Of a DNA stretch of 64,000 bases, positions 12,239 through 63,939 are shown piece by piece. A program made the position numbers and the translations under genes. Each line of letters begins with the position of its first letter. Positions within the stretch are counted from its first letter, which is position 1. The notes under the pieces were generated by a model. The model had not been told where the DNA came from, did no database searches, and worked only from the letters and a program-made list of their open reading frames with translations. This DNA comes from a virus (Duplodnaviria; Heunggongvirae; Uroviricota; Caudoviricetes), in IMG/VR virus record IMGVR_UViG_3300046692_000385. One strand, written 5' to 3'.

Positions 12239-14509
12239 TTACTGGCAGCTTTCGCAGTTCGGGTTGTCGATGGAGCACAACGACACGCCGATGTCCTGCT
12301 CCATCACATCGACAGCAGCCGGCGCGGCCTGAGCGACCGGTGCTTCTTCCTTCGCCTTCACCGACTCGGTGCGCAGGTAGTAGGTCGTTTTCAGACCGAG
12401 CTTCCACGCCGTCAGATAGATTTCGGAGAGCACCTTGCCCTTCGTGCCAGCCTTGATCCAGATGTTGGTCGACTGCGCCTGGTCGATCCACTTCTGGCGA
12501 CGGGCGGCCGCCTTCACGATCCACATCGGGTCGATTTCGAAGGCGGTCTTGACCTTCTGACCCGGCGTGGCGTAGCGCAGGCTCGGCGCGATCACGAGGA
12601 ACTTGCCGCCCATGTTCTTCTTGCTGTGGAACAGTTCGAAGTTCGGCTCGATGCAGGGCGACACGCCGATGATGTTGCTGATCGTGGCCGTCGGCGCGAT
12701 CGCCATCGTGTTGCTGTTGCGCATGCCGTAGGTCATCACGTGGTGCGTCAACTCGTCCCAGTCATAGAGGCCCGTGCGCGACTGGTCGCGAGCGGTATCG
12801 ATCGGCAAAATCCCCTGACTCCACTTCGAGCCCGCGAACGTGCTGTAGGCACCGCGCTCGATTGCAAGCTCCACCGACGCGCTGATCGCCTCGAACGACA
12901 GGGCTTCGAGCACCAGATCGTTCATCACGAGGCACTCTTCCGACTCCCAGTCGATGTTGGACTGCGCGAGCAGGTCCGACAGGCCCATCAAGCCGAGACC
13001 CACCGGGCGGTGACGCAGGTTGGCCGTCCTGGCGCGATCGGACGGGTAGAAGTTGATGTCGATCACGTTGTCCAGCATGCGCATCGCCGTCTTCACCACG
13101 CGGCTAAAGCGCGCCGGATCGGCGATCGGGTTGACCTTCGCCACGTTCACGCTGCCCAGATTGCACACGAACGTCTCGTCCGGGCCATTGTTCAGGGCGA
13201 TTTCCGTGCAGAGGTTCGAGTTGTGGATGATGCCGACGTGCGACTGCGGGTTGCGCCGGTTCATCTCGTCCTTGAACGTGATCCAGGGGTTGCCCGTCTC
13301 GAACAAGGCGGTCAGCATCTTGCGCCAGAGCTCCACCGCCGGAATCTCACCGACGTAGGCGCCAGCCGCTTCGAGCTCCTCGTAGCGCGCTTTGAAGGCG
13401 TCGCCGTAGAGTTCGTGCAGGTCCGGGTGGCTGTGCGGATCGAAGAAGTGCCACACGCCCTTCTCTTCCACGCGCTGCATGAAGAGGTCGGGAATCCAGT
13501 TGGCCGGGAAAATGTCGTGCGTGCGCTCGTGGTCATCGCCCGTGTTCTTCTTCAGGTCCAGGAACGCCGGCAGGTCCGGGTGCCAGGTCTCCAGATACGG
13601 CGCGAAGCTGCCTTTGCGCTTGCCGCCCTGGTTCACGGCGACGGCCGTGTCGTTGTAGACCTTCAGATACGGCACGACACCGCTCGACTTGCCGTTGGTG
13701 CCCTTGATGTGGCTGTTCTTGCCGCGCACCTTCGTCCAGTCCGTGCCGATGCCGCCGGCGTATTTCGAGAGCAGCGCGCACTCGGTGATGGAGCCGTAGA
13801 TCGAGTCGTAGGGGTGGTCGCCCGGCTCCGCCACGATCTGGTCGCCCACCTGGTTGCCGTAGCAGGACGACATTTGCTGGTGCAGCGTGCCGGAGTTGAA
13901 GAGGGTCGGCGTCGAGGACATGAATTCGAAGCTCGACAGGACGTTGTAGAACTCGATGGCGCGCGCCGTCGGGTTGGCTTCGCGTAGTGCGAGACCCATC
14001 GCCACGCGCATGAAGAAGTGCTGCGGCATCTCCATGATCCGGCCGTCCGGCGTCTCGCGGATGAAGTAGCGATCGGCGAGCGTTTGCAGGCCCAGGTAGT
14101 CGAACTGGTAGTCGCGATCCGGGACGATGGCGGCATCGAGCGCGTCCAGGTCGAAGCGGCCGTCAGCCATGACTGCCGTGAGCTTGAGCGCCCCGATTGC
14201 CTCGCCGATGTAATCGCCCAGACGCGGATAGTCGATCGAGCCGACCGATTCCTTGAAAATCTGCTGCTTCAGGAGGCGCGCGGCGACGAACGTGTAGTCC
14301 GGCGCTTCGAGGCTGATCAGCCCGCCCGCGGCGAGAATGGTCGCGCGGTGGATCTGCTCGGTGCTCATGCCGTCAAACAGCATGTCGCCCACGCTCGTTT
14401 CAAGCTCGGACTGGGACACGTCAAGCCCTTCGCAGGCCCAGGCGACGCACTTCTGGATTTTCTCGATGTTCAGGGCTTCGCGCGATCCGTCGCGCTTGAT
14501 GACTTCCAT
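12239..14509 (-). CDS. nrdA: ribonucleotide reductase class I alpha subunit
   Basis: 756 aa; N-terminal ATP-cone (VIKRDGSREALNIEKI), RNR catalytic core, C-terminal CESCQ cysteine pair. Confidence 0.85.
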   Translation of the reverse strand: MEVIKRDGSREALNIEKIQKCVAWACEGLDVSQSELETSVGDMLFDGMSTEQIHRATILAAGGLISLEAPDYTFVAARLLKQQIFKESVGSIDYPRLGDYIGEAIGALKLTAVMADGRFDLDALDAAIVPDRDYQFDYLGLQTLADRYFIRETPDGRIMEMPQHFFMRVAMGLALREANPTARAIEFYNVLSSFEFMSSTPTLFNSGTLHQQMSSCYGNQVGDQIVAEPGDHPYDSIYGSITECALLSKYAGGIGTDWTKVRGKNSHIKGTNGKSSGVVPYLKVYNDTAVAVNQGGKRKGSFAPYLETWHPDLPAFLDLKKNTGDDHERTHDIFPANWIPDLFMQRVEEKGVWHFFDPHSHPDLHELYGDAFKARYEELEAAGAYVGEIPAVELWRKMLTALFETGNPWITFKDEMNRRNPQSHVGIIHNSNLCTEIALNNGPDETFVCNLGSVNVAKVNPIADPARFSRVVKTAMRMLDNVIDINFYPSDRARTANLRHRPVGLGLMGLSDLLAQSNIDWESEECLVMNDLVLEALSFEAISASVELAIERGAYSTFAGSKWSQGILPIDTARDQSRTGLYDWDELTHHVMTYGMRNSNTMAIAPTATISNIIGVSPCIEPNFELFHSKKNMGGKFLVIAPSLRYATPGQKVKTAFEIDPMWIVKAAARRQKWIDQAQSTNIWIKAGTKGKVLSEIYLTAWKLGLKTTYYLRTESVKAKEEAPVAQAAPAAVDVMEQDIGVSLCSIDNPNCESCQ

Positions 14510-15996: not shown

Positions 15997-16713
15997 TCAC
16001 CATGATCCGAACTCCTGGTAGCTCTCGGCGGCCGCTGCGTTGCGCTCGATCTCCTCTGCCTTGCGGGCCTGCGCTGCGATCTCCTCTTTCGCCGCCATCA
16101 CGTCCTTGAGCACTTCGTGCATATAGATTGGGAAGGCCGCGCCGAATGCGCTCTTGCACTGCTTCTCGGGAATTTCGAGGAATTCGAAGTCGCACGGGTA
16201 TGTCGGCTTGAAGACGATGATCGTGCCTTTCTTCTTGCCGACATACGCGCGCACCGGGGTGAACTCCTCCCCGCCGATGAACGGCCTGATCTTGAATTCC
16301 TTGCCGTTCTTGGTCGTGTGCTTGCCGGGCGCGGTGAGCATGAAGCTGCCTGGGGTCTCGGAGAAGGCGCTCTCGTATTGACCGACGAGCTTGGCGAGCT
16401 CCTCTTCTTCCGGTGTGACGGGTGTTGCTTCCATGTTGTCGACCTCCTCGTCGATCGGTTTCTGGTTCAGTTTGTATTGCGGGCGTGGTTTGGTTCCGTT
16501 GCGGCGATGCAGCTCCTCCCGATAGGCGTCCGGGCCGCCCGGGAAGCTGGCGGCGTCGTCGCTGTTAAAGCCTGGGATCGTCAGGTCAGACACGAGCGTC
16601 GTGCCGACCGATCGACCCTTGAGAATGGCGAACCGCGGCTCGTCTTTCGTGCGCGGCTCGGGTTTTATCCCGAGCGCCTTGTCGAAGAATTTGTCGGTAT
16701 TAAACGGAGCCAC
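15997..16713 (-). CDS. hypothetical protein, C-terminus ..QEFGSW
   Basis: GTG at 16713 with CAGGAGC RBS; longer ORF-track N-terminus is an Arg-rich overlap with sbcC. Confidence 0.45.
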   Translation of the reverse strand: MAPFNTDKFFDKALGIKPEPRTKDEPRFAILKGRSVGTTLVSDLTIPGFNSDDAASFPGGPDAYREELHRRNGTKPRPQYKLNQKPIDEEVDNMEATPVTPEEEELAKLVGQYESAFSETPGSFMLTAPGKHTTKNGKEFKIRPFIGGEEFTPVRAYVGKKKGTIIVFKPTYPCDFEFLEIPEKQCKSAFGAAFPIYMHEVLKDVMAAKEEIAAQARKAEEIERNAAAAESYQEFGSW

Positions 16714-18649
16714 GTTCGGTCGCTCCTGACACCTTCGAGACGCCACCTTCCTTCTCGACCGTGATGATGTTGTCCACCCAGTCCGCCAGCGAGTTGTGGC
16801 TGATGACGAGGACCGTGCCGCGCTCGCGAGCCTTGCGTTCAAGGACGCTCATGAGGCGCTCGAGCCCTGCTTCGTCGAGCGCGTGGTCGATTTCGTCGCC
16901 GATCCAGAGGTTGATCGGCTTGGTCGCGCGCGTCGCTACCATGTCCTGCAGCGCCATTGAGGCGGCCAGGCGTGCTTTGCGCTTTTCACCGCCCGAGAGG
17001 CCCGCGAACGACTTGGCGCCCTTGTCGTTGGTGACGTCGATGTTGAACTTCTCCTTCAACTCTCCCTTCGCCGTCTTCGCGAGCGTGTTCCAGGTCGCGT
17101 GAATGTTGCCGTCGGCCAAGATGCCGAGATAGTCGGAAGTCTGCTCGTTGAGAATCGGCGTCACCGTGTCGAGGATGTGGGCGCGCACACCGGCGGGTCC
17201 GTAGACCTTGACGACGGCTGCCGCCAGCTCGACCGCTTCGACTGCCTTGTCGAGCGCAGCCTGTGCGTCACCCAGACGGTTCTCGGCCTTTTGGCGCTTC
17301 TCGCGCGCAGCAGCCTCCACCTTCGCCCAGGGGTTCTCCGCCTTCAGATGCGCGGTGGCGGCCGCCTTCAGTGCGTCAATCTGAGCGCCGAGCGTCGATT
17401 GCTGCCGCTTGAGCGTGCGAATCTCGTTCAGGGCATTGTTCAAAAGCGTGCTCTTGCGTGCCACTTCGCTAACGTCAGTCATCGACGCTTTGAACTTCGT
17501 GGCGGCTTCTTGCAGCGCTTTGAGTTCTTCCTGTCGCTCGCGAAGCGACTTCGCCACCGGCACGAGTTCGCCCTTCGTCTCGGCGATGTTTTTCACACGC
17601 GCTGCCTTCGCCGCTTCGAGGTCGTGCTCGCAATACGACTTGCCGCACTCGCCGCATGGCTTGCCAATGAGCGATTCGACTTCAGTCAGCCCCTTCTGTT
17701 GGAGTTCGAGCCGCTTCTTTCCAGCAACCAGCGTTACCGTCGTGGTGGCAATCTCGCGCTCCTTCGCCGACACCGCGCGGTTATGGTCGTCCATGAGCCG
17801 CTGCTCGGCCTTCTGGTCGTCGAGCTTCGTCTGCAGGGCGTCGATTTCGTTGGCGAGATCCACTTCGCTCGCGTGCGCGGCGATCTTTGTCTCGACTTCC
17901 TTGACCTGTGCCTGGATCGGCGGCACCTTCGCGAGCTCCAGCTTCGCGCGGTCCTTGCGCTGCGATTCGAACAGGGCCTTCTGCTCCTCTGCCGACTTCA
18001 CTTCGTCACCCGCAGCACTGACCGCGGCGATGGCGTTGTCGCGCTCGCTGCGTGCGATCTTCTCGGTGGATTCAGCGGCGAGCGCGCGCTTGCGAGCCTC
18101 CGCGTAGGCTTCGGTCAGAATCTCGACGCCGGCCGACTCCTCGATCAGCGCCTTGAGGTTCTTGTCGGTCATGCCCGGCAGGTCGGGCATTTTTTCTTGC
18201 CCAGCATATACGGCAGCCGCGAAGACCTCTTTGGACGAGCCGACGATCTTGTCGACCACCTTCTGCGTCTCCTTGTCGGTGCCCTTCGAGAGATCGTTCC
18301 AGCCAAGCGGCGTTTGTTGCTTGGCGATCAGCGCGTTCTTGATCTCCTTGCTCTTGCGACCGCGAGCAATTTCGTAGACGTGCGGACCGTCCTCGATGAT
18401 CACCGACACGTGGCAATCCTTGCCGGCGGTGTCGTTGATCACGTCATCACCCGAGACGCCACGCGCGGTTTCGCCATAGAGCACCCAGAACAGCGCGTCG
18501 ACGATGGAGCTTTTGCCCGCACCGTTGGACTTCGCTGACGGGTCGTCGAGGTTCTCGCCCTGGATGAGCAGCAGCCCGCGGTTGTCCAGCTCGAGCTTGG
18601 CTTCCCCGATCGTGAGGAAGTTTTTGATTGAAAGCGATTTGATGTCCAT
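16700..18649 (-). CDS. sbcC: SbcC/Rad50-like ATPase
   Basis: N-terminal Walker A GENLDDPSAKSNGAGKSS, long coiled coil, CGECG zinc hook-like, C-terminal signature and D-loop. Confidence 0.75.
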   Translation of the reverse strand: MDIKSLSIKNFLTIGEAKLELDNRGLLLIQGENLDDPSAKSNGAGKSSIVDALFWVLYGETARGVSGDDVINDTAGKDCHVSVIIEDGPHVYEIARGRKSKEIKNALIAKQQTPLGWNDLSKGTDKETQKVVDKIVGSSKEVFAAAVYAGQEKMPDLPGMTDKNLKALIEESAGVEILTEAYAEARKRALAAESTEKIARSERDNAIAAVSAAGDEVKSAEEQKALFESQRKDRAKLELAKVPPIQAQVKEVETKIAAHASEVDLANEIDALQTKLDDQKAEQRLMDDHNRAVSAKEREIATTTVTLVAGKKRLELQQKGLTEVESLIGKPCGECGKSYCEHDLEAAKAARVKNIAETKGELVPVAKSLRERQEELKALQEAATKFKASMTDVSEVARKSTLLNNALNEIRTLKRQQSTLGAQIDALKAAATAHLKAENPWAKVEAAAREKRQKAENRLGDAQAALDKAVEAVELAAAVVKVYGPAGVRAHILDTVTPILNEQTSDYLGILADGNIHATWNTLAKTAKGELKEKFNIDVTNDKGAKSFAGLSGGEKRKARLAASMALQDMVATRATKPINLWIGDEIDHALDEAGLERLMSVLERKARERGTVLVISHNSLADWVDNIITVEKEGGVSKVSGATERGSV

Positions 18650-27296: not shown

Positions 27297-30665
<3,369 letters not shown>

Positions 30666-36722: not shown

Positions 36723-37400
36723 TTACCTGATCGCCGCCGAATCCTTTAAGCTACGGCGGTCCGACCGTGTAATAACGCCCACAACACGGATCGGTTGGCC
36801 GAACGTGTCCTTGAAAACCTCGAATACTCCCTCTAGGTTTACCCCTATGTCACGCTTGTGTTCACCCTCGAAAAATACACGTGTCAATCCTTCTTGAAGC
36901 ATGCGATTGTAAAGTGCATCAACCACGGGTTTATTCTTTTCTGACAATAGGGCGCGGAAGTTTTCATGCGTTGCTTCCATACCAGGGGGTGCACAGAGGT
37001 GCTCACGTGCTAACGGACTCCAGTGGCAAACACCCGTTAGCAGGTTTTCCTCGATCACCCCGGCGTCTAATAGATTGATGGCAATGTGGAGGCGTCGTTC
37101 GCTGGCGATACAAGCTTCTAAGTAGGCTCGCCTCTTCTGAGCAAAGGCGTCATCAGGCTCTGGCTGCACTGAACGTAGTGCCTCATCCCCGTAACCTAAC
37201 CAGACCCAATTGACGTCCAAGTATTTGGAGACATCTCTCAAGCTCTTGTAATTTATTGCCCCACCCTTCAACCACTTTCCGACAGCTTGCGGAGATACTC
37301 CAATCGCTCTGGACAAAGATGCGGCAGTCTCTTGCTTGGCTTCTAGAAGCGAGCGTAGTCGTTCTGGGAAAGTGGCCTCTTTCTCAGTGGCGTTGGTCAC
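36723..37400 (-). CDS. HTH (XRE/cI-like) regulator with uncharacterised C-terminal domain
   Basis: N-terminal LRSLLEAKQETAASLSRAIGVSPQAVGKWLKGG. Confidence 0.5.
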   Translation of the reverse strand: MTNATEKEATFPERLRSLLEAKQETAASLSRAIGVSPQAVGKWLKGGAINYKSLRDVSKYLDVNWVWLGYGDEALRSVQPEPDDAFAQKRRAYLEACIASERRLHIAINLLDAGVIEENLLTGVCHWSPLAREHLCAPPGMEATHENFRALLSEKNKPVVDALYNRMLQEGLTRVFFEGEHKRDIGVNLEGVFEVFKDTFGQPIRVVGVITRSDRRSLKDSAAIR

Positions 37401-37658
37401 AGCTTCATCCTTTATTGTTCTCTCAACACGTTTGGCTTCACTACTATAGGGATAGTGATATTACTGTAACTAAATACACTTAAAAGCACTTTGGTATAAC
37501 GTGCTTTTTGTTTTTTGTCTGATAGATTCTACCCTCAGTTGGTGCACTGGAAGATCGCACGCTCCCGAGGTTGCCCTCTATATAACAATTCCCATATCTC
37601 GTTAAATCCCGAGCATTATAGAAAGCCAACTATTAGCGCACCCACCTTGCTTGCTACG

Positions 37659-37698
37659 TTGGTATTTTGGTATCTAGATACCTTGGTATCTTGGTATG
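37659..37698. repeat. candidate partition (centromere-like) site: TTGGTAT heptads around 14-bp palindrome GGTATCTAGATACC
   Basis: Four TTGGTAT copies within 40 bp plus a fifth near 37487, ~100 bp upstream of parA in AT-rich spacer. Confidence 0.4.
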
Positions 37699-37787: not shown

Positions 37788-38441
37788 ATGTCCGTTGTTA
37801 TGGTGGGAACTGAGAAGGGAGGTGTGGGCAAATCTACCTTTACACAGAACTTGGCTTCTATCCGCGCATCGCTCAAACGGCGAGTCGCCGTGTTCGACCT
37901 GGACGGGCAGAACAGCACGGCGAAGTGGGCTTCGCGTCGGGCCGATAATCCCGCCCTGGCGCCGGTCCACGTCGAGCGGTGGGAGCCGCGAACGCCGATC
38001 ACGAAGGAAGAGTTTGGCGCCGTCATCGCGCGCCTGATTGACACCTACGACGACGTTTTTATCGATGTCGGTGGGCGTGATTCGGACGGCTTTCAATGGG
38101 GCTTAGGCGTCGCTGACCGGGTGATTGCACCGCTCGTGCCGTCGCAGATGGACCTAGACACTGTGCCCGATCTTCACGCTCTCGTTGGCACCTATGCGAA
38201 GAAAATTAACCTGAGTGTGGTGCTCAATATGGCCGACAAACGCAAGCGATTCACGAAGGCGATGGTGCAGAAAATGGAGCCCTACGCCGATCGTCTCCCG
38301 CTCATGAGTCACATGGTCGCGCCGCGAGAAAGCTACAAATTCGCCAACGCTCAGGGCAGGGGAGTGGGCGAGCTTTCGGGTTCCGAGTGGGATGCCAGTG
38401 CGGCCAACGAAATGAAAGACCTATATTTGGGAACGTTCTAA
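37788..38441 (+). CDS. parA: ParA-family partition ATPase
   Basis: Deviant Walker A KGGVGKST; GGAGAGGG RBS. Confidence 0.8.
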   Translation: MSVVMVGTEKGGVGKSTFTQNLASIRASLKRRVAVFDLDGQNSTAKWASRRADNPALAPVHVERWEPRTPITKEEFGAVIARLIDTYDDVFIDVGGRDSDGFQWGLGVADRVIAPLVPSQMDLDTVPDLHALVGTYAKKINLSVVLNMADKRKRFTKAMVQKMEPYADRLPLMSHMVAPRESYKFANAQGRGVGELSGSEWDASAANEMKDLYLGTF

Positions 38442-38443
38442 TC

Positions 38444-38821
38444 ATGAGCAAAGCCAACGTGATGTCGGAGCCAAAGAGTAAGCAGTATTTGGCGGACCTG
38501 GAGGCGGTCGACACCTCGCGCTCGGCGCCTGCACCTGCTAACCCGCCCGAGAGGATTGAGGACGAGGAGGTGGTAGCACCGGCGGTAGTGACAGAGGGGA
38601 GGGCGCTTGCTCGCCCGGGGAGGGGCGTGGACTTACAAGCCCTGCGCGCCGCGCTGCCGAAGAAGGAAGCTCCGGTGCAGCAGCCGGTTCGTATTCCGCC
38701 GTCGTTGAAGGAGGACCTGACGCTGATCTGTTTCGCGCTTGGTAAGACCAAGAACGACTTCATCGTGGACATACTGCGAAAGGAAGTCGCGCGTGAGAAG
38801 AAGCGCATGGGCCTGGACTGA
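38444..38821 (+). CDS. ParG-like ribbon-helix-helix partner protein
   Basis: Start MSKANVM right after parA stop; C-terminal RHH RIPPSLKEDLTLICFALGKTKNDFIVDILRKE. Confidence 0.5.
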   Translation: MSKANVMSEPKSKQYLADLEAVDTSRSAPAPANPPERIEDEEVVAPAVVTEGRALARPGRGVDLQALRAALPKKEAPVQQPVRIPPSLKEDLTLICFALGKTKNDFIVDILRKEVAREKKRMGLD

Positions 38822-38844
38822 CCACCCTCCTGCAGACTGCTTTT

Positions 38845-39125
38845 CGGGTTTTGAGATAGGGGTCTATTGGGAGGTTTTCCGGGTTGGATCGGGTTTTGAG
38901 ATAGGGGTCAGGGTAGTTAGAAGATAGTTATAAAGGATTAGGGCCTGTGGAAAGGACTTGTAAGTCACTGAAAACATAAGCCTTTTTTTGCATGCCTTCT
39001 ATCTCAAACCCCGACAATTCCTATCTCAAACCCCGTTAGCGGCTATCTCAAAACCCGAGTTTCTATCCCAAACCCCGAACGAAAAATATCTCAAAACCCG
39101 ATAGTTATGCACATCTCAATCCGAG
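38845..39125. repeat. iteron-type replication origin: 2 inverted + 6 direct copies of TATCTCAAA(A/C)CCCG at ~22-bp spacing
   Basis: Direct copies at 39000, 39022, 39044, 39064, 39087, 39112 (last degenerate); inverted copies at 38845 and 38890; flanked by 16-bp inverted repeat GCCTTTTTTTGCATGCC (38980) / GGCATGCAAAAAAA (39145). Confidence 0.75.
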
Positions 39126-39147
39126 CCCTGCGTGCTACTTTCTCGGC

Positions 39148-39969
39148 ATGCAAAAAAACACCGCCATCGACATCCTGAAACGCCGAGAAGCCACGCAGCG
39201 AAAGGCATCGACGGCGCCCGTCCAACTGGAGTTCTGGTCCGAGAAGGTTCGTGGTCTGCCTAACACGCTCGCGCGCTGCGCGCTATTTACCGCGGCCGGC
39301 AAGAAAGAGGATCGGGCCAAATTCAGCGAGCATGTCGTTTTCTCGACCAAGGGTTTCACACTGACCTACACCGGCGAGGAACTACGTCAGGATGACCAGG
39401 ACGTTTTCCTGCAGCTCGTCCACATGACGCGCGGCATTCCCATCGGCCACAAGCTGAACGTCACGGGCTACACCATTCTGGGGGCGCTCAGTTGGGGCAA
39501 GGGCGGCAAAGACTACGCGCGCCTTCGCGAGAGCATTGAGCGGCTCTCCGACACCAGGATAAAGCTCGAAGGCGAGAACATACGCTTCAAGGGCGGATTG
39601 CTGCCCTCGATGACCCAAGTCGGTGACTCGGCTGCGAGTCGGTTTCGACTGTGGCTGGACCCGAGCGTGATCGAACTCTTTGGCGAGAACGAGTATTCAC
39701 TGGTCGACTGGGAGGATCGGCTCTCGCTGTCGGCCCTGGCGAAGTGGCTCCACAGCTTCTACTTCACGCACCGAGAGCCGCACCCATATCGAATCAAAAC
39801 CATTCACGAGCTTTGTGGCAGCCGGCAGAAGGAGCTCTGGGCCTTTAAGCAGAAGCTCAAGTTGGCGCTCGATGAACTGGTGCTGATTGGCTTTCTCGCC
39901 AAATACGAAATCCTGGGCGATCTGCTGGCCGTGCGCCGGCAGTATGCGGTTGCGGCACTTCGCAACTAA
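39148..39969 (+). CDS. TrfA-like plasmid replication initiator
   Basis: LPNTLARCALFTAAG segment typical of TrfA family; immediately downstream of iterons. Confidence 0.55.
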   Translation: MQKNTAIDILKRREATQRKASTAPVQLEFWSEKVRGLPNTLARCALFTAAGKKEDRAKFSEHVVFSTKGFTLTYTGEELRQDDQDVFLQLVHMTRGIPIGHKLNVTGYTILGALSWGKGGKDYARLRESIERLSDTRIKLEGENIRFKGGLLPSMTQVGDSAASRFRLWLDPSVIELFGENEYSLVDWEDRLSLSALAKWLHSFYFTHREPHPYRIKTIHELCGSRQKELWAFKQKLKLALDELVLIGFLAKYEILGDLLAVRRQYAVAALRN

Positions 39970-40348: not shown

Positions 40349-40813
40349 TTGCGCGGACCACCGGAGATTGCAATGGATCTACTGAACCTACTCGAAGGCG
40401 TCGCGGCAGTCTTAGCCATTTACATCTCAGTTGGGAAACTCCAAAGAGGGCTCTTAAAAAACTGGCTCACTGCCTGGCGCATCATGGCTAGCGTTGGGGT
40501 CGTCGCCGTCTGTGGGTGGATGCTGGTTTTCCAGGTGACCGGCAATATCGACGAAATAATTCACTATCCGCGCGCGGGCCTGTTTCGCAGCCTATCCGTC
40601 GCCGCGCTAGTGATCTGGGCAGCGGTCGTGACGGTCTGGGGCACCTGGAAGCCCTACCACGTCAAGACGATGAACATTCAGGAGAGGCGCTGGCACTTCG
40701 GAATCATGTTCTTGGTGTGCGTTCTCATCGTAGTGGCCGCGAAGATTCCACGCTGCTCAGGCAGTGCCTTATACGATTCTGCATGGGGAGTCTGGTGGTG
40801 CCAGCAGGGCTAG
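40349..40813 (+). CDS. membrane protein
   Basis: 154 aa, 4 predicted TM helices. Confidence 0.4.
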   Translation: MRGPPEIAMDLLNLLEGVAAVLAIYISVGKLQRGLLKNWLTAWRIMASVGVVAVCGWMLVFQVTGNIDEIIHYPRAGLFRSLSVAALVIWAAVVTVWGTWKPYHVKTMNIQERRWHFGIMFLVCVLIVVAAKIPRCSGSALYDSAWGVWWCQQG

Positions 40814-41463
40814 GCCTTGCCGCTGCGGCCCCAGCCGAGCGCTGCTGGGCGGCTGTAGTTGGCGAACTTCACCTTGAGCCAGTCTCTTGAGCGCCCGCGC
40901 TGATACGGCGAGTCGAGTCGCTTGCCGACCATACCCTCGAAATCGTGCTCCTTGACCTGCTCGAAGACCCATGCGCCGGCCGCCACGATGCCGGTTACGT
41001 AGACCAACACGGCCGTATTGTCGAAGGAGTCGCGCAGCGCCTGCTTGCGCTCGACAAGCGGCAGGTGCCGAATGTCGCGATCGCCATCGGCGAGCATGTC
41101 AAACACGTAGAGGCGGGCCGGGTGCAGCCTCATCGCGGCCCGCACGTTCGCTGCGACCGAGGTCCGCGCCCGAATTTGCAGGCGCTCGAATGAGGACTGC
41201 CCAGTCGGCTCATCCACAGTGAGCTCCGCGTCCCAGATGAAATCGCCGGGCACCTGCGCGACCGCCGCGAGCACGTCAGGAAACGAGCGGTTCATGAGGT
41301 TGCCCTGCCGCGAAATTAGCTCGACGCGCGCGCCAACCTTCCGAACCAGACAGCGATGGCCGTCGTATTTAAGTTCGAACAACCAGTCTTCGCGGGAAAA
41401 CGGTGCGCGGTTGAGCGTGGCGAGCATCAGGTCGCTGGCGTCGATGAGCGGAATGCCACTCAC
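40810..41463 (-). CDS. ATP-dependent DNA ligase nucleotidyltransferase domain only (no OB domain)
   Basis: Motif I KYDGHR, III FIWDAEL, IV LYVFDML, V EGMVGK; 217 aa. Confidence 0.6.
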   Translation of the reverse strand: MSGIPLIDASDLMLATLNRAPFSREDWLFELKYDGHRCLVRKVGARVELISRQGNLMNRSFPDVLAAVAQVPGDFIWDAELTVDEPTGQSSFERLQIRARTSVAANVRAAMRLHPARLYVFDMLADGDRDIRHLPLVERKQALRDSFDNTAVLVYVTGIVAAGAWVFEQVKEHDFEGMVGKRLDSPYQRGRSRDWLKVKFANYSRPAALGWGRSGKA

Positions 41464-44508: not shown

Positions 44509-44919
44509 TCACCAGGTTTTGATTTCTTCGAGCTTCAGTTCGATTTCGGGCGACGCCTCGATCGTGCGCAGCGCGAGCAGGCGCATGTCGTTCAAATGCG
44601 CGCGCACCGCTGCCAATTCCGCTTTGTGCGATTCGGTCGCTTCACCGCTCGATGGACGGAATCCCTGCTTGTAGAGCGCGTCGAAAAGCGCTTGCGCGGC
44701 TTTATGCGTGAGCGTGAACATCGGCTCCGGCGGCATCGCCTGACCGGTCGGCACGTTCTCGACTTCAAACGAGCCGAACGGCTTGATGACGCCCACGCCG
44801 GTCGTGCCTCGATACGACAGGCCGTGAACGTCAAGACCGCCCACGCCCATGTTCTCGCGCATCATCACCTCCTCCAGCCACAGAGTCGGGACCGCCTTTG
44901 GGGTGGACGACGTGCTCAT
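44509..44919 (-). CDS. hypothetical protein
   Basis: 136 aa. Confidence 0.45.
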   Translation of the reverse strand: MSTSSTPKAVPTLWLEEVMMRENMGVGGLDVHGLSYRGTTGVGVIKPFGSFEVENVPTGQAMPPEPMFTLTHKAAQALFDALYKQGFRPSSGEATESHKAELAAVRAHLNDMRLLALRTIEASPEIELKLEEIKTW

Positions 44920-46313
44920 GCTGCGAGCGCCTCCACCTTCTTGCCGGTGACAGCATTCGCGCGAGCGGCGATCACTTCTTCCAGCGAGTCGGCCGTCTCC
45001 TTGTCCGTGCGATAGCTGGCTTCAGCCATGCGCGGCAGGAACAGGCTATGCAGCGGGTTGCTGTCGGAGGGCTTCATGATTTCGTTGAAGCGAATCGGCC
45101 ACACGTGACCGATGAAAGCTTCGCGGTCGGCGTCGATGGCGTCACGCAGCGCTTCGTTCTTCACCGCCACATTGACCTGCAGCAGACCGTCGCGGGTTTC
45201 CATCGTGACGCGCCCTGCCCGCCCTTCGTTCTTCGTGCCCGGTTCGCCGTCGAGGATGGCGGTCGAGACGAGATCCACATCGATTTCCAGCTTGAGCTTG
45301 ACCACATCGGCGTTGCCGCTCGACGTGTCTTTCCAGACGCCGGCGCCGTTCTTGAGCACCGTGCCTTCCTTGCCTTCGATCTGCAGGCTCGCGCAGTGTG
45401 CATAGGCTTCGTCGAGCGAGTGGACGATCTTCGTCGGGATCAGGCGCACCGAAGCGCCGCCCGAGCGCATGATTTGCGTGAGCAGGCCTCTGAAGCGCTC
45501 GCGATACGGCGTGTCGCAACTGCCCTTTGGCAGCGCCAGTTCGAGCGGGATCTGATCCCAGGCGAAGAAAACAGGCTTCTCGTTCGGAGCGAAGCTGCCG
45601 CCCGCCAGCACGCTGTTCAGAATGCCGTTGCCGAGTTCACGCGAGGCGACCACGCCGTCGACCAGCACCACGATCTCGCCGTGCGTCTGCGTGCCAGGTG
45701 AAAAGGTTTTGCGCGCTTCGTGTTCGATGGCGGGGAACGCCTCGATCGGCAGTTCGTTGCCCTGGCGCGTGGTCAGGCGCACGACGCCGGCCGTATCGTG
45801 GTCAACGTTCGTGAATGCGCCGTCTGCCTTGTGCTGGCTGAACGCGCCCGCCTTCCAGTCCCACTTGTCGAACTTCGCCTTCTCCGGCAGCACGCAGCGC
45901 ATGTAGGGGAAGCTGCGGATCGTGCCCTTCTTCGCCTTGTTGACGGTTTCGGCCGAGAAGCCCGCGCGCAGGTCTTTCTTGATGATGCGCCAGAAGAGTT
46001 CCGACGAGGCGGGCTCAAGGCGCTCCATCTCCGCGCGCACTGCGTCGATTGCCGCGTTGCCGGTGAGGTCACGCGCGGCGAGGCGCTTGATGATCGCGTA
46101 GGTGTCTGCGTCGAACATCGCACCACCAACCTTCGCCGCGTCATTTTCCGGGCGTTTGCTGATGCCGTAGCTGATCAGCGGGTCGAGCGCGAACAGCAGC
46201 ACGTCCCGAAAGTCGACATCCTCGATGTTCGCGGCGACGAGCGCCTGCTTTTCGTTCTTGCTGCTGGTCGAGGCGATCGTATCGATCAGCAGGAAAATCT
46301 CTTTCGAATTCAT
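44916..46313 (-). CDS. ATP-dependent DNA ligase (full length)
   Basis: Motif I region QHKADGAF, adenylation + OB domains, N-terminal DNA-binding domain. Confidence 0.7.
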   Translation of the reverse strand: MNSKEIFLLIDTIASTSSKNEKQALVAANIEDVDFRDVLLFALDPLISYGISKRPENDAAKVGGAMFDADTYAIIKRLAARDLTGNAAIDAVRAEMERLEPASSELFWRIIKKDLRAGFSAETVNKAKKGTIRSFPYMRCVLPEKAKFDKWDWKAGAFSQHKADGAFTNVDHDTAGVVRLTTRQGNELPIEAFPAIEHEARKTFSPGTQTHGEIVVLVDGVVASRELGNGILNSVLAGGSFAPNEKPVFFAWDQIPLELALPKGSCDTPYRERFRGLLTQIMRSGGASVRLIPTKIVHSLDEAYAHCASLQIEGKEGTVLKNGAGVWKDTSSGNADVVKLKLEIDVDLVSTAILDGEPGTKNEGRAGRVTMETRDGLLQVNVAVKNEALRDAIDADREAFIGHVWPIRFNEIMKPSDSNPLHSLFLPRMAEASYRTDKETADSLEEVIAARANAVTGKKVEALAA

Positions 46314-49101: not shown

Positions 49102-50523
49102 TCACTCGACTCTCAAAATGCCCTTGATGAACGTCATCGTCGCCATGTCCTGTTGAATGAACACGGTGAAACCCGACTCCTGATTTCGTGATGCGGCAAA
49201 GTAGAGCCGCGCCTCGTTCTTCGAGCGCTCCTCGTCGGTGATGTTGATGGAGATCACCAAGTCGGCAATTCGGATGCGGTTAAAGTCTTCCGCCACGTGC
49301 TCGGCTTTCGCCACCGTGGACTTGAAGCCCTCCCGGTTCGTCTGCGTCGCCGACAGCATCGCGAAGCCCTCGACCAGCGCAATTGCGCGCATGTCGGTGT
49401 AGATGGACTTCGAGTTCTCCACCGAGTCGGGCGTGCGGTAGTTCGGCGCCATGATGTCGAGGTAGTCGCACACCACCAGGTCGAAGATGACGCCCTTCGC
49501 CTTGTAGCGATCGATCAATGCCTGCATCGAGTTCGGCGTGAACTTCGAGGACGGGAACTCATGCACCTTCAGCAGACCCGAGCGCGCACGCAGCGCCTTG
49601 ATCTTGCTGTCGGTGTCGTGGATGTTCTTCGTCAGCTCCTTGATCAAATTCTCGGAGATGGACGCATCCAGACGTTTCGCGATAATGTCCGCGCCGAGCT
49701 CCAGCGTCACATACAGGACGTTCTTGCCGACGAGCGAGGCGTTCTTCGCGAAGTTGATCAAGGCCGTCGACTTGCCCGCCTTAGCCCCGCCCATGAACAG
49801 CGTCAGTTCTTTGCGGCCGAAGCCTTTGTGCATCAGCAGTTCATCGAGCTTGGACAAACCGGTAGAAATTCCCTTCGGCGCCGTCTTGCCGCTCGCTTCG
49901 TCGAGGCGTTCTTCCGTGCGCGATTCGATCTGCGCCCAGTAGTCGTAGCCGTCGTCGGCCTCGTTCAGCCCGACGTCATACGCTTCCTTGATCGCCTTCA
50001 GGATCGGATCGAATTTCTTTTTCTCCAGCAGGCTCACCGACGACAGAATCGCCTGGCTCACCGCCTGGTGTCGTGCGAACTCCGCGACCTTCTCGGCCAC
50101 GTAGTCACGGTCGCCCACCGGGTGATCCTTGAGCACCTTGAACGCACGCACCACTTCGGCAGCCGCGTCCTTACGCATGCGTGCGCTCGTTACTGCGTCG
50201 CGAATCAGTGTCGGGAACACCGCGGCTTCAGGCGTGCGCTTGAAGCGCTCGAAATAGCGCAACGTCAGGTCCACTACGCCCGCTTCACCGTCGTTCTCGA
50301 AATACTCGGGCTTGAGCAGGTGCGACGAACGGCGCATGAATTCCGTGTCCCGCAGCGCGAGCGTCGCGATGATGGTCTGGAACTCGTCGTCGAATTCGAA
50401 CTTGTTGGCGATGAACTCTTCCACGCTCTCGGATTCGGCAGCAGGTGCGGCAGCGCCGCTATACGCAGCGCCCACCATCTTTGCGACCGATTCCTCGACG
50501 CTTGCGATGGCGGCTTCGCTCAT
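49102..50523 (-). CDS. dnaB: DnaB-family replicative helicase
   Basis: RecA-like C-terminal domain with Walker A GGAKAGKST; N-terminal DnaB-like domain. Confidence 0.8.
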   Translation of the reverse strand: MSEAAIASVEESVAKMVGAAYSGAAAPAAESESVEEFIANKFEFDDEFQTIIATLALRDTEFMRRSSHLLKPEYFENDGEAGVVDLTLRYFERFKRTPEAAVFPTLIRDAVTSARMRKDAAAEVVRAFKVLKDHPVGDRDYVAEKVAEFARHQAVSQAILSSVSLLEKKKFDPILKAIKEAYDVGLNEADDGYDYWAQIESRTEERLDEASGKTAPKGISTGLSKLDELLMHKGFGRKELTLFMGGAKAGKSTALINFAKNASLVGKNVLYVTLELGADIIAKRLDASISENLIKELTKNIHDTDSKIKALRARSGLLKVHEFPSSKFTPNSMQALIDRYKAKGVIFDLVVCDYLDIMAPNYRTPDSVENSKSIYTDMRAIALVEGFAMLSATQTNREGFKSTVAKAEHVAEDFNRIRIADLVISINITDEERSKNEARLYFAASRNQESGFTVFIQQDMATMTFIKGILRVE

Positions 50524-60262: not shown

Positions 60263-60751
60263 TTATTGGATCGCTGCTGCGGTTTCGTTGATCTTCGCCA
60301 CGATGTCGTCGTAGGCGCTTCGGGCTGCTGCTGAAGAGGTGGCGGCGAGGATCTCGTATTTGCGCATGCGCAACACGCCGAGTGCGGAGAGCGCCCCGTT
60401 CAGACCGACCGCTTGCGCGAGGATCAGATCCGCGGCCTGCTGGTTGGTCTTGCCGGCAGGCGTTGCGAAGCCTGTCACCCACGGGCCGGGGTCGCCCGTG
60501 TAGCCAGCATCCTTAAAGGCCTGAGCCGCCGCCTCGCGCGACAGGTATTCCTGCTGAAAGCGGGTCCAGTTCGCGTAGACCGATGCCACCAACGAGTCGA
60601 TCTGCGCGGGCAGATCATCCTTCAGGTAGTCGAGCCAGCCCGCGTCGGTGTCGGCGATGAGCGCGTTCAGGGTGCCGTCATCGGCGGCGGCCCACACCTT
60701 GTTCGTGCTGACCATCCCCGTCACGGGATCGATCGCCTTCAGATACTTCAT
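60263..60751 (-). CDS. hypothetical protein
   Basis: 162 aa, coupled to tail-fibre gene. Confidence 0.45.
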   Translation of the reverse strand: MKYLKAIDPVTGMVSTNKVWAAADDGTLNALIADTDAGWLDYLKDDLPAQIDSLVASVYANWTRFQQEYLSREAAAQAFKDAGYTGDPGPWVTGFATPAGKTNQQAADLILAQAVGLNGALSALGVLRMRKYEILAATSSAAARSAYDDIVAKINETAAAIQ

Positions 60752-63700
60752 GCTGCCGCTCCTTCAAGTGCTGCAATGCGCGCGAGTGCGCTGTCGAGTT
60801 TGGCGGTGAGCGCCTGCACCGTTTTCATCAGCGGATCGATCAGGTCGGTCTTGTCAGCGACTTCCTTGACCGCTTCGATGAGCGGAGCCACGAGGTCGGT
60901 GTAGGCGACGCCGAGGTAGTCTTCCTTGCCCGGGCCAGCGCCATGAGCCGTGACCGCATCGGGGAAGTGCTTCTGAATCTCCTGCGCGATCACGCCGTAG
61001 TGCTTTTCGCCGCTTGCCTTGTAGACGTAGCTGACGCCACGAATCGCGCGGATTTTGGCGAGCGATCCCTTGAGCGTCTTGATCTTCTTCTTCAGGCGCT
61101 TGTCTGAACCGTTGCTGCCAACGCCGCTGCCCGAGATAACGAAGCGACCCACTTCGGACGTGTTGTTGTAGTTCACCGTGCGCAGCACGATGCCGCCCGC
61201 CGCTCCGCCGTTGTTACACGCAAGCCAGAGCGCGCCGTCGCCGTTGTTGTCGTTCCAGCTCATCGTGCCGCCGCCTTGGGTCAAGCCATAGCCGCCGCCA
61301 TAGCCGCTACCCGAGCAGCGCAGGTGATGTCCGCTGATTTCGGAAATGCCAAAAACCGAGCCGTTGAAGGTGCCGCCCGATTGCGACATTGGGTTCGACA
61401 CACCATTGACGCTACCCGCCGAGTTCGCGTAGTTGACGTTGAAATTGGACGGGTTCCAGACATACATATTGGTGCCGTCGCTGCCACCCCAGACCCAACT
61501 CGGCTGACCGCCCTGACCCGACCAGTTCCAGGTGCTGTCCGTCGTCGTCCCGTTGATGCGCACATGCGACGCGGTATAGATCAGGCCGTTCGTTTGCGCG
61601 GGGCTTGCCAGATTGCCGCTATGCCAAATCGTGTTGGGTGCGCCATAGTTGCCGCCGTTAGTCGCGAGCTGGAGCGTGCCGTTGTAAAGAAGACGGCACG
61701 ACGCGTTGCCGGATGCTTCGCTGCCGGCAATGACATAGCCACCGACCGCATGGAGGTTGCCGTTCGCATAGAGGTCAGCCCGCGCCGTGACATACCCCGT
61801 ATCACTGACTGTCAGATTGACGGCGGTGTTGGCGCTGTTGACGAACTCGATCGTGCTGTTGGCGAGGTTCGAGCGAAGCACCGGCACATAGCTGCCCGAG
61901 GAGAGCTTCAACTGCGCCATCGTGCCGTGATAGATATTGACCTGCGCGGTCTGAAGCTGAAGCGTGCCTGCGCCCGGCGTGCCCGAGATGCCGCCCGAGG
62001 CAATGATCCGCGAGTCGAAGTCGTTGGCCGTTCCCGAGCTGTGGAAGTCGATGAACGGCGTCATCGTGGCGGTGGTCGAGCCAAACTCGAAACTGCCGCC
62101 GAGCACGTTGAAGCCGCCGCCCACATTGAGCGCGCCCGTCACGTTCGCACCGCCCGTCACCTGGAGCTTGTTGGTGCCATCATCGGTCGCCGACCCAATC
62201 AGCACGCGACCGCCATACGTCATGCGCATGACGAGCGACTGGTTAATGTCGCTTGCTGCGTCGTTGGTGGTGTTGTTCAGGAAGAAGTCGAGATATTCCG
62301 TCCCATATGCGCCCGTGAAGCCCGAGTGCATCGAGGCAACCAGGCGCTGGCCCGTATCGGTGCCGGTGCCGAAGGTGCTGTAAAAGCGCAGCTTGCTCTC
62401 GCGCCCAATCGCGCCGCTCGATGCCTTGAGGTTCAGGTGCGCGTTGGTTGCGCTCGACACCATATCGATCGTGGTGGCGGCCGCAATCGTGCCGCCGGCC
62501 GACTTGTCGAACGGCGTGACGTTGGCGCTATCCCACGGGGTGGCCGTGCCAAAGACCGGACGCTGAGTGAACGTGGCGACGCCCGTTGCGGAGGCGATCG
62601 AAAGCGGGTTGTCGGCGAACGTGCCGCTCGTGTAGCGCTGAACGTTGAAGTTGTCCGCGGTCGAGGACTGAAGCCCCCAGGCTGTGGCGCCTGCGCTCTT
62701 GAACAGGACGTTCTTAGCCTGCCCCGCTGCCGTCGAGTCGAGCGTGAGCGTGGTCGAGGCATCCTTCAGGTAGATGTCGCCCCCGACCTGCAACGCGTTC
62801 GCGCCGTCGTCGGTGGTGGTGCCGACCAGCACGCGCGCGCCTGCGCTGACCCGGAACGCTTCTGCCGAGCCGTTCGAGAACGCGAGCGTGTTTGCGGCAG
62901 GCGAGTTGATGTAGGCGCCACCAGCGTTGAAGAGGATCTTCGGACCGGCGCCGGTAAGCGCGACGTTTCCGTTCACCTGGAACTTGTTCGTGCCGTCGTC
63001 GGTGGTCGAGCCCACGATCACGTTGCCGCCCGCCTCGCCGATCTTGATTGCGCCGGTCGAGCCGATGATGCGCAGGCGCGTCGCGGTGCCGTTCGCGTCC
63101 GACACGTAGAAGCCGAAGCTGCCGTCCGAGTCGCGCCCGAACATGCGCATGAGCGTGGTGCCCGAGTAGAGGTCGTAGCGCGCTTCCGAGCCGGTTGCAA
63201 CGGCGCTGCGGATCGTGCCGGCTGCCTGAATCAGCGCCGCGCCGTCATCGGTGACGTTACCCACCAGCACGCGACCCGCCGACGGCATCAGCTTCATCAC
63301 GCCCAGACCGATGCCGCCGCCCGCCGGGCGCGACACGCTGATCGCATCTTGCGACGAGCTGTAGGCGTCGTTCATCGAGCGAATCGCGAACGTGCCCGAC
63401 GAGTTGACGATGGTTTCCCAGGTCTTCTCGTCAGCGGCCGCGCCCTCGCGCGTAAGGAACATCGAGGTCTGCCCGGTGCCGCTGCCATTCGATGCGCGCA
63501 GTGCGCCCGAAGCCTTCGTGCCCTCGATCGAGCCGTTCACCTGCAGCGCATTGACGCCATCATCGGCCGTCGTGCCGACGAGAATGCGACCCGAGTTGGT
63601 GACGCGCATGCGCTCGACCTTGGCAACCGCGCCGCTCGGGGTCGTGTAAAGACGCAAGCCTGCCGGCGCGCTTGCGCTCGTCACATCGCCTTCAGCCCAC

Positions 63701-63939
63701 GCGTCGATCGAGGCCATGTCCTGATAGGCGGCACCATCGTAGCCGCGGAAGGTCAGCGTGCCTGACTGCCCGCCCGAGGCGAGAGCGCTCGGTGCGGAGA
63801 CGGTTCCAGCCGCGCCGCGCATGACAAGCGAGCCGCCCGTGCCGTAGCGTGTCGACTGAAACTTGGCGTTGTCGACCAACAGGTCGCCCGTCATCGTGTC
63901 GCCCGACTTCGAGACCGGGTTGCCGATCGAATTTGCCAC
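60748..63939 (-). CDS. tail fibre / tailspike with C-terminal S74 intramolecular chaperone
   Basis: C-terminal SDKRLKKKIKTLKGSLAKIRAIRGVSYVYKASGEKHYGVIAQEIQKHFPDAV is the autoproteolytic chaperone domain. Confidence 0.7.
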   Translation of the reverse strand: MANSIGNPVSKSGDTMTGDLLVDNAKFQSTRYGTGGSLVMRGAAGTVSAPSALASGGQSGTLTFRGYDGAAYQDMASIDAWAEGDVTSASAPAGLRLYTTPSGAVAKVERMRVTNSGRILVGTTADDGVNALQVNGSIEGTKASGALRASNGSGTGQTSMFLTREGAAADEKTWETIVNSSGTFAIRSMNDAYSSSQDAISVSRPAGGGIGLGVMKLMPSAGRVLVGNVTDDGAALIQAAGTIRSAVATGSEARYDLYSGTTLMRMFGRDSDGSFGFYVSDANGTATRLRIIGSTGAIKIGEAGGNVIVGSTTDDGTNKFQVNGNVALTGAGPKILFNAGGAYINSPAANTLAFSNGSAEAFRVSAGARVLVGTTTDDGANALQVGGDIYLKDASTTLTLDSTAAGQAKNVLFKSAGATAWGLQSSTADNFNVQRYTSGTFADNPLSIASATGVATFTQRPVFGTATPWDSANVTPFDKSAGGTIAAATTIDMVSSATNAHLNLKASSGAIGRESKLRFYSTFGTGTDTGQRLVASMHSGFTGAYGTEYLDFFLNNTTNDAASDINQSLVMRMTYGGRVLIGSATDDGTNKLQVTGGANVTGALNVGGGFNVLGGSFEFGSTTATMTPFIDFHSSGTANDFDSRIIASGGISGTPGAGTLQLQTAQVNIYHGTMAQLKLSSGSYVPVLRSNLANSTIEFVNSANTAVNLTVSDTGYVTARADLYANGNLHAVGGYVIAGSEASGNASCRLLYNGTLQLATNGGNYGAPNTIWHSGNLASPAQTNGLIYTASHVRINGTTTDSTWNWSGQGGQPSWVWGGSDGTNMYVWNPSNFNVNYANSAGSVNGVSNPMSQSGGTFNGSVFGISEISGHHLRCSGSGYGGGYGLTQGGGTMSWNDNNGDGALWLACNNGGAAGGIVLRTVNYNNTSEVGRFVISGSGVGSNGSDKRLKKKIKTLKGSLAKIRAIRGVSYVYKASGEKHYGVIAQEIQKHFPDAVTAHGAGPGKEDYLGVAYTDLVAPLIEAVKEVADKTDLIDPLMKTVQALTAKLDSALARIAALEGAAA

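Follow-up and report, generated by a model that had tools for sequence, protein, structure and literature searches.

A probable TrfA-family iteron origin next to a partition operon on a phage-plasmid-like element

Phage P1, which lives as a plasmid, carries an iteron origin (oriR) in which DnaA boxes, an AT-rich region, and five iterons lie directly upstream of repA and next to a par operon; the rep promoter is located at the rep-proximal end of the array, and binding of the initiator feeds back on expression. The oriV of RK2 is composed of four DnaA boxes, iterons, and a DNA-unwinding element (DUE) with 13-mers (PMC4980987), which agrees with what was found in pA2483imp-1 (NZ_LC532225.1; here L036), an IncP archetype that was taken from the list of tblastn matches and compared directly. 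Downstream of trfA, L036 contains, in order, one plus two iterons, a DnaA box (TGTGGATAA), six iterons (TTGACAYTTGAGGTAG) with a period of exactly 22 bp, T-rich repeats that end in TAACC, and a GC-rich stretch. Here we describe a repeat array upstream of a trfA gene in the IMG/VR virus record IMGVR_UViG_3300046692_000385. The window, to which all repeat counts and shuffles refer, is the full 64-kb stretch that was analyzed. Judging from its sequence, the locus is very probably the plasmid-state oriV of a TrfA-family iteron replicon and belongs to a parA/small open reading frame (ORF)/ori/trfA cassette on a phage-plasmid-like element of ~115 kb.

The array was found between the parA/small-ORF operon and the TrfA-family rep gene. 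Five direct copies of a 16-mer (consensus CTATCTCAAAMCCCGA), each with 0 to 2 mismatches, are present on the + strand: iteron 1 (38999 to 39014; CTATCTCAAACCCCGA, 1 mismatch), iteron 2 (39021 to 39036; CTATCTCAAACCCCGT, 2 mismatches), iteron 3 (39043 to 39058; CTATCTCAAAACCCGA, 0 mismatches), iteron 4 (39063 to 39078; CTATCCCAAACCCCGA, 2 mismatches), and iteron 5 (39086 to 39101; ATATCTCAAAACCCGA, 1 mismatch), at intervals of 22, 22, 20, and 23 bp, a phasing of about two helical turns. Two distal iterons lie upstream in the opposite orientation (− strand), tandem to one another, at 38844 to 38859 (a) and 38889 to 38904 (b). Both match the consensus without mismatches, and the perfect repeat runs on to 38864 and 38909, respectively, yielding two perfect 21-nt copies of TCGGGTTTTGAGATAGGGGTC that are 45 bp apart. 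The first of these starts 23 nt past the stop codon of the par operon, and the pair is located 261 to 306 bp upstream of the trfA ATG, beyond the AT-rich region. With one mismatch or fewer allowed, the 12-mer TCTCAAAMCCCG occurs seven times in the window, every time in this locus; shuffled sequences contain 0.47 ± 0.66 copies, and none of 100 shuffles attains seven. No further copy of the 16-mer with up to 3 mismatches was found in the window outside the locus.

The repeat coordinates given in an earlier note on this DNA were all accurate, its 14-mers beginning one base after our 16-mers. That note counted six direct and two inverted repeats, of which five direct and both inverted copies are retained here. 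Its sixth direct copy, at 39112, was rejected: only 9 of 14 positions match, and the copy coincides with a conserved DnaA-box block, so that it consists of the DnaA box plus flank. It is not an iteron, because the block CACATCTCAA is conserved even where the outer half of the iteron differs.

The locus was compared with four close relatives (L002, L004, L006, and L008; Rep 57 to 72% identical) on contigs of up to 111 kb and with more distant TrfA replicons, namely the Burkholderia gladioli contig L038 (49%), L039, L040, B. glumae plasmid bglu_3p (NC_012720.2, L001; 45%), and the viral contig L013 (46%). The order parA, small ORF, gap of 310 to 370 bp, and trfA is kept in all close relatives, and all four contain two inverted and five direct copies, the latter at intervals of 22, 22 to 23, 20 to 21, and 23 to 24 bp. 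The inverted pair is found just past the small-ORF stop codon in these relatives, with a spacing of 23, 34, 57, and 45 bp compared with 45 bp in the window, and across the elements the inverted copies are located 261 to 347 bp upstream of the start. These distal copies are the best-conserved iterons within each element. The core TCAAAACCCGA is invariant in the close relatives, while the outer 4 to 5 bp are lineage specific, being CTATC in the window, GTTCC in L002 and L004, and G(G/T)GAC in L006 and L008; the direct and inverted copies of any one element carry that element's own outer variant. The distant replicons contain 6 to 9 direct and 1 to 4 inverted copies with the core TCAAA(A/C)C(A/C)CGA. 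The array is thus kept in nine further elements whose Reps are 45 to 72% identical, and because the repeats keep their place beside rep and vary along with it, they behave as expected of initiator-binding iterons. The claim of an iteron origin beside rep, for which the earlier note had made conservation of the repeats next to rep in homologous elements one test, is therefore strongly supported: a TrfA-family gene lies downstream, the repeats stand next to rep in every homologous element examined, and the order of parts is IncP-like. As a side observation, the ~25 nt from the small-ORF stop codon to the first inverted iteron (38819 to 38843, TGACCACCCNCTTGCAGACTGCTTTT) are more conserved among the five close elements than is the preceding coding sequence.

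A DnaA box is located at 39105 to 39113 on the + strand (TTATGCACA, 1 mismatch to TTATCCACA), where it overlaps the rejected sixth repeat. The perfect box TTATCCACA is present in L004, L008, and L039, and in all eight elements having a box, it lies 3 nt past the last iteron. Alignment of the five close intergenic regions revealed that the block directly past the last iteron, GATAGTTAT(C/G)CACATC, which includes the DnaA box, is invariant. The CACATCTCAA block is the same in elements with another iteron outer half, and it diverges in L006 and L008 independently of their iteron.

The most AT-rich portion of the locus lies between the inverted pair and iteron 1 and contains a putative DUE (38910 to 38945) with the short tandem repeats TAGTTAGAAGA and TAGTTATAAAGGA. 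In five of five close elements, the 30-mer of lowest stability in the intergenic region coincides with these tandem repeats, at −78 to −95 from iteron 1, and two to three copies of AGTTAAAAAG are conserved at this position in the alignment of the relatives' intergenic regions. As single-stranded DNA, the AT-rich segment is predicted to form no structure (z, +1.18). A small palindrome, GACTTGTAAGTC, was observed at 38955 to 38966, between the AT-rich repeats and iteron 1, and palindromes of the GCCTT..AAGGC type are present about 30 to 50 nt upstream of iteron 1 in L002, L004, L006, and L008. A function of these small palindromes as terminator or operator was considered and is not favored, as the sequence is not conserved and there is no T-run.

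Read on the minus strand, the locus consists of the DnaA box (39113 to 39105; TGTGCATAA), the direct iterons (39101 to 38999; five copies of TCGGGKTTTGAGATAG), the AT-rich element (~38945 to 38910; an A-run with CCTTTATAACTA and TCTTCTAACTA), and the inverted iterons (38904 to 38844). The order and orientation of the DnaA box (TGTGSATAA), iterons, and AT-rich element are the same in the IncP-type oriV of L036, and the AT-rich repeats resemble the T-rich, TAAC(C)-ending repeats found there in the same orientation. Comparison of the IncP and window iterons (TCGGGTTTTGAGATAG versus TTGACATTTGAGGTAG) revealed 11 of 16 identical positions, with TTTGAGRTAG in common. In both systems, the iterons are about 16 to 17 bp long, are phased at ~22 bp, and are accompanied by a TrfA-family initiator. 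The two origins appear to be homologous in design.

The initiator gene, trfA (39148 to 39969, + strand), encodes a protein of 273 amino acids that matches PF07042 above the curated cutoff (E value, 1.6e-28; residues 19 to 261). It has 27% amino acid identity (BLASTP E value, 1e-36) to the IncP-type TrfA, with a range of 27 to 29% across the IncP-type comparisons, and homologues annotated as trfA were found in 652 plasmid records. The closest named Reps are those of Burkholderia, at 45 to 49% identity (45% for the TrfA of B. glumae). No alternative start codon that preserves the conserved N-terminal residues was found for trfA. An AlphaFold2 model of TrfA (predicted local distance difference test score, 69; predicted template modeling score, 0.62) was compared with the PDB using Foldseek, and the only matches at an E value of <1e-3 were RctB domains 2 to 3, the TrfA-double-stranded DNA model 9a0w, and RepE54; RepA of pPS10 is also among the iteron-binding initiators matched by the predicted fold. 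The template modeling scores of these matches are modest (0.3 to 0.47), and a phmmer search of the Rep sequence against PDB sequences yielded no match. TrfA is accordingly modeled with the tandem winged-helix fold of iteron-binding Reps. Residues 26 to 30 of TrfA read QLEFW (39223 to 39237); Q26 and W30 do not vary among 11 relatives, and L27 hardly does. This pentapeptide lies in the same N-terminal region as QLSLF of the IncP-type TrfA, with an offset of five residues in the BLASTP alignment. The TrfA of RK2 contains a beta-clamp-binding motif involving L137/F138 (PMC4980987), and QLEFW is possibly a candidate for such a clamp-binding motif.

A putative trfA promoter with an extended −10 element was found at 39133 to 39141 on the + strand (TGCTACTTT; TGnTAnnnT), its function being suggested by position and conservation. 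The motif stands exactly 19 nt downstream of the DnaA box in eight of eight elements, and it occurs just 11 times on the + strand of the window. Last iteron, 3 nt, DnaA box, 19 nt, and TGnTAnnnT thus form a module that is fixed in the eight elements. In the distant members, a leader of 18 to 30 nt comes after the extended −10, and four of five have a Shine-Dalgarno-like motif. The distance from the −10 hexamer to the ATG is only 6 to 8 nt in L002, L004, and the window (6 nt in the last), with no Shine-Dalgarno sequence, and a leaderless trfA mRNA is therefore the probable prediction for the sub-lineage of the window. A strict sigma-70 −35/−10 scan from par to trfA yielded no promoter, terminator prediction over the same region yielded no terminator, and no site was found in a scan of 38800 to 39160 for the consensus of the integration host factor. 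This conserved extended −10 is the likelier candidate for the trfA promoter.

The cassette opens with parA (37788 to 38441, + strand), which encodes a small Walker-type partition ATPase (Pfam MipZ/CbiA/ParA; PHROG 164, ParA-like, E value, 2.6e-30) and has the same position in all relatives. It is followed by the small ORF (38444 to 38821, + strand), which encodes 125 amino acids from the ATG at 38444, in agreement with a 125-amino-acid gene call on an identical contig. No match to Pfam or PHROG was found for this ORF. The relatives contain an ORF of 122 to 145 amino acids at this position, and on the basis of position only, the product is presumed to be the centromere-binding partner of ParA. 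A gene for a CI-like helix-turn-helix (HTH) repressor (36723 to 37400) is divergent from parA, and the AT-rich gap between the two genes contains five 8-bp repeats (TTGGTAT) at 37658 to 37697: GTTGGTAT, TTTGGTAT, CTAGATAC (inverted), CTTGGTAT, and CTTGGTAT. The relatives contain other repeats upstream of parA, such as those of the CCCATAT type in L006. Operators and centromeres of small ParA systems are usually found upstream of parA, and the TTGGTAT repeats are likely to be a candidate par centromere/operator.

The array is bracketed by a perfect 14-bp inverted repeat, with the left arm at 38983 to 38996 (+ strand; TTTTTTTGCATGCC) and the right arm at 39145 to 39158 (+ strand; GGCATGCAAAAAAA), which includes the trfA ATG (39148). 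The earlier note had correctly placed this repeat around the array and over the start codon; its length is 14 bp, not the 16 bp that had been given. It is not a chance feature of this sequence, because the longest match in 5,000 shuffles of both segments was 11 nt and none reached 14. That note read Rep binding at the inverted sites as overlapping the promoter and start of rep; a Rep operator formed there by the repeat, the inverted iterons, or both would give autorepression as in pSC101, F, R6K, and pPS10. Many iteron Reps do autorepress via inverted repeats, their dimers binding operator sequences (PMC8034659), and the repeat at the ATG is statistically real. However, it contains no iteron sequence and is absent in four of four close relatives, where the best inverted match of the equivalent segments is 4 to 6 nt, which is chance level; at least its left arm must be called lineage specific. 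The inverted iterons in turn are tandem copies whose spacing varies from 23 to 57 bp, and the AT-rich element lies between them and the distant start codon. No palindromic (half-)iteron pair overlapping the rep promoter was found at this locus. Since the inverted iterons overlap neither promoter nor start codon and the repeat at the ATG is neither iteron-like nor conserved, the classic autoregulatory layout that had been proposed is not supported, and we consider Rep autorepression through either element very improbable. The 14-bp repeat could also act in RNA, where a helix in read-through transcripts would sequester the trfA AUG and only proximal leaderless transcripts would be translated. 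In the read-through RNA of 38975 to 39170, the arms indeed pair as a 14-bp helix in both the minimum free energy and the centroid structure (z = −2.58), no terminator is predicted between par and trfA, and this lineage lacks a Shine-Dalgarno sequence and a leader. Against this, L002 and L004 have the predicted leaderless arrangement as well, yet they do not contain the repeat, and the helix would have to span the entire iteron array. Because L002 and L004 lack it, the repeat cannot be part of a general mechanism, and a role in RNA is unlikely.

A different view would take the 22-bp-phased repeats for a partition centromere (parS/parC) that is bound by the small upstream protein and not by Rep. 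The repeats begin only 23 nt after the par operon, the small ORF has no family assignment, and in some type Ib par systems, the centromere is located downstream of the operon. The same repeat family, however, stands beside trfA in bglu_3p, whose upstream partition gene is of the ParB/Spo0J type, and the repeats resemble the IncP TrfA iterons in sequence, in phasing, and in orientation to the DnaA box and the AT-rich element. The TTGGTAT array upstream of parA is moreover the better centromere/operator candidate. We regard a centromere function of the iterons as exceedingly unlikely.

If the locus is a TrfA-dependent oriV, initiation could proceed along the lines of the RK2 paradigm (PMC4980987; PMC8034659). 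TrfA monomers would bind the five direct iterons cooperatively, and host DnaA would bind the adjacent box. TrfA and DnaA would together melt the AT-rich element 80 to 90 bp beyond iteron 1, where a DnaB-type helicase would be loaded; the element encodes a DnaB-like helicase and a primase of its own. The distal inverted iterons may most likely serve in copy number control by handcuffing or titration, or they may bracket the putative unwinding element, both roles being weakly suggested; their variable spacing speaks against cooperation within the pair and against an operator at a promoter. Transcription of trfA would probably start from the extended −10, which would place the DnaA box at about −43 to −35, and occupancy of iteron 5 and the box would therefore be a plausible route of feedback on trfA.

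Several observations weigh against an oriV with this promoter. The AT-rich element is short, and its AT content is only moderate (GC content, about 0.43 to 0.48). A single DnaA box with one mismatch stands here, compared with four boxes in RK2. The conserved extended −10 was missed by the strict −35/−10 scan, no −35 is evident, and what speaks for both the promoter and the leaderless mRNA is conservation alone. Without a terminator between them, trfA could be cotranscribed with the par operon. Finally, the element has phage-type replication genes of its own alongside this origin.

The window is part of a 115,577-bp metagenome source contig, on which the identical Rep is recorded and of which the other ~51 kb lie outside the window. 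Its genes are those of one half of a large phage-like genome, the half that serves replication and nucleotide metabolism. They encode a DnaE-type polymerase, an exonuclease subunit, a DnaB-like helicase, a primase, the large and small subunits of ribonucleotide reductase (RNR), SbcC, SbcD, a UvsX-like recombinase, DNA ligase, CobT/CobS-like proteins, and PhoH; phage-type genes are located, for example, at 27297 to 30665, 12239 to 14509, 16700 to 18649, and 49102 to 50523. The only virion-type gene inside the window encodes a tail fiber of 1,063 amino acids (60748 to 63939). The contigs of the relatives are listed as viral genomes in IMG/VR. By gene content, partition and replication genes of the plasmid type are joined here to a phage backbone in a single replicon, which is the mark of a phage-plasmid, and the element apparently persists as a plasmid. 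Two ATP-dependent DNA-ligase-like genes were observed in the window. One (40810 to 41463) encodes 217 amino acids with the adenylation domain only (PF01068; E value, 7.7e-27), and the other (44916 to 46313) encodes a full-length ligase of 465 amino acids (phrog_114; E value, 8.5e-95). A 236-amino-acid version of the short ligase is found near trfA in L004.

No close described plasmid was found for this cassette: a megablast search of the par-ori-rep region against PLSDB yielded no match, and in a tblastn search of Rep, the GenBank phage collection yielded no phage with a related TrfA. Among 185,579 species-representative genomes scanned, none had a TrfA of >45% identity. The nearest cultured carrier is B. 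gladioli, with a TrfA that is 49% identical. This sequence, L038, comes from the cultured B. gladioli isolate GCA_048654765.1 (contig JBMDMM010000028.1; 111,078 bp) and has the same synteny as the window, CobT/HTH repressor/ParA/small ORF/iterons/TrfA. A 42,052-bp contig from a metagenome-assembled genome of Chromatiaceae (CALZJI010000181.1; L019 and L020) contains two trfA copies with identical match statistics in opposite orientations near both contig ends (3388 to 9152 and 32901 to 38665), and the pair reflects a large inverted duplication or else an artifact of assembly.

The DnaE-type polymerase has 58% amino acid identity to those of Acinetobacter baumannii plasmids of 107 to 113 kb and 43 to 45% identity to those of Rhizobium RHEph10-like, Stenotrophomonas, and Pseudomonas phages (108 to 122 kb). 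The A. baumannii plasmids and RHEph10 have been placed in the AB community of phage-plasmids or among its outliers (Pfeifer et al. 2021, PMC7969092). In phage-plasmids, the phage genes are conserved and the plasmid genes are variable (PMC7969092), a pattern that the window fits. Tentatively, and with considerable doubt, a larger scenario can be imagined in which an undescribed AB/RHEph10-like lineage, probably of the Burkholderiales, captured a TrfA/oriV replicon. The trfA promoter would have been hard-wired to the DnaA box at the 19-nt register and made leaderless in one sub-lineage, so that copy number would be read from DnaA and TrfA occupancy. The at least three iteron specificities among related elements of one metagenome series would then allow these elements to coexist as compatible plasmids.

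The locus would represent the plasmid-maintenance replicon of a phage-plasmid lineage that is known almost only from metagenomes. Along the natural series of relatives, the outer half-site of the iteron differs from one Rep lineage to the next on an unchanging core; this series could serve to map the specificity determinants of TrfA and to foresee which phage-plasmids that occur together are incompatible. A small regulatory variant is seen in the fixed linkage of last iteron, DnaA box, and extended −10 and in what seems to be a change to leaderless trfA. Experiments on this phage-plasmid family could possibly be done with the B. gladioli isolate.

Among the described systems, the AB group of Acinetobacter is related to the window in its backbone, and an A. 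baumannii AB plasmid shares with the window a synteny of ligase, guanylate kinase, par, HTH regulator, CobT/CobS-like genes, DnaE, recombinase, SbcCD, and RNR. It contains no trfA and no iteron array beside par, and the Acinetobacter relatives have no recognizable replicase at that position. Its ParA is 30% identical to that of the window, and the small partner is unrelated. An argument from Acinetobacter relatives that would have the par module in common with the window but not the iterons was dropped; with so distant a ParA and an unrelated partner, it is the whole cassette that differs.

The Burkholderia TrfA replicons (bglu_3p and L038) have the array immediately before trfA, additional inverted copies at a greater distance upstream, and the core CTCAAACC(A/C)CGA. 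In B. gladioli, as in the window, the DnaA box is followed by a 19-nt gap and TGCTACGCT. These replicons differ from the window in having more iterons (6 to 9 direct and 3 to 4 inverted), the outer half-site GGTCGC instead of CTATC, and, unlike the window, a trfA leader with a GGAG Shine-Dalgarno sequence. The conjugative plasmid bglu_3p (MOBF/MPF_F), whose partition partner is of the ParB/Spo0J type, is not a phage-like element.

With respect to the IncP plasmids, the origin of the window precedes trfA, whose promoter adjoins the DnaA-box end of the origin, while the IncP-type oriV is located downstream of trfA (L036; PMC2848598). The five direct and two inverted iterons contrast with the nine iterons of L036, all of which have one orientation. 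The window contains neither the ssb-trfA operon nor the kor/trb neighbors of IncP-1 plasmids, whose backbone is of the kor/trb/tra type, its cassette being coupled instead to the parA/small-ORF operon. The element is not an IncP-1 plasmid proper, as it carries a par-ori-trfA cassette on a phage-like backbone and its Rep is only distantly related to the IncP-type TrfA. The likeness to P1 is that of an iteron origin in a phage living as a plasmid. RepA of P1 does not belong to the TrfA family, the P1 iteron sequence is unrelated to that of the window, and the P1 control array incA lies downstream of repA, whereas the extra copies of the window lie upstream and are inverted. The origin itself is ordinary: its logic of iterons, DnaA box, and DUE is that known from RK2 and P1, and the phage-plasmid setting is its only unusual aspect.

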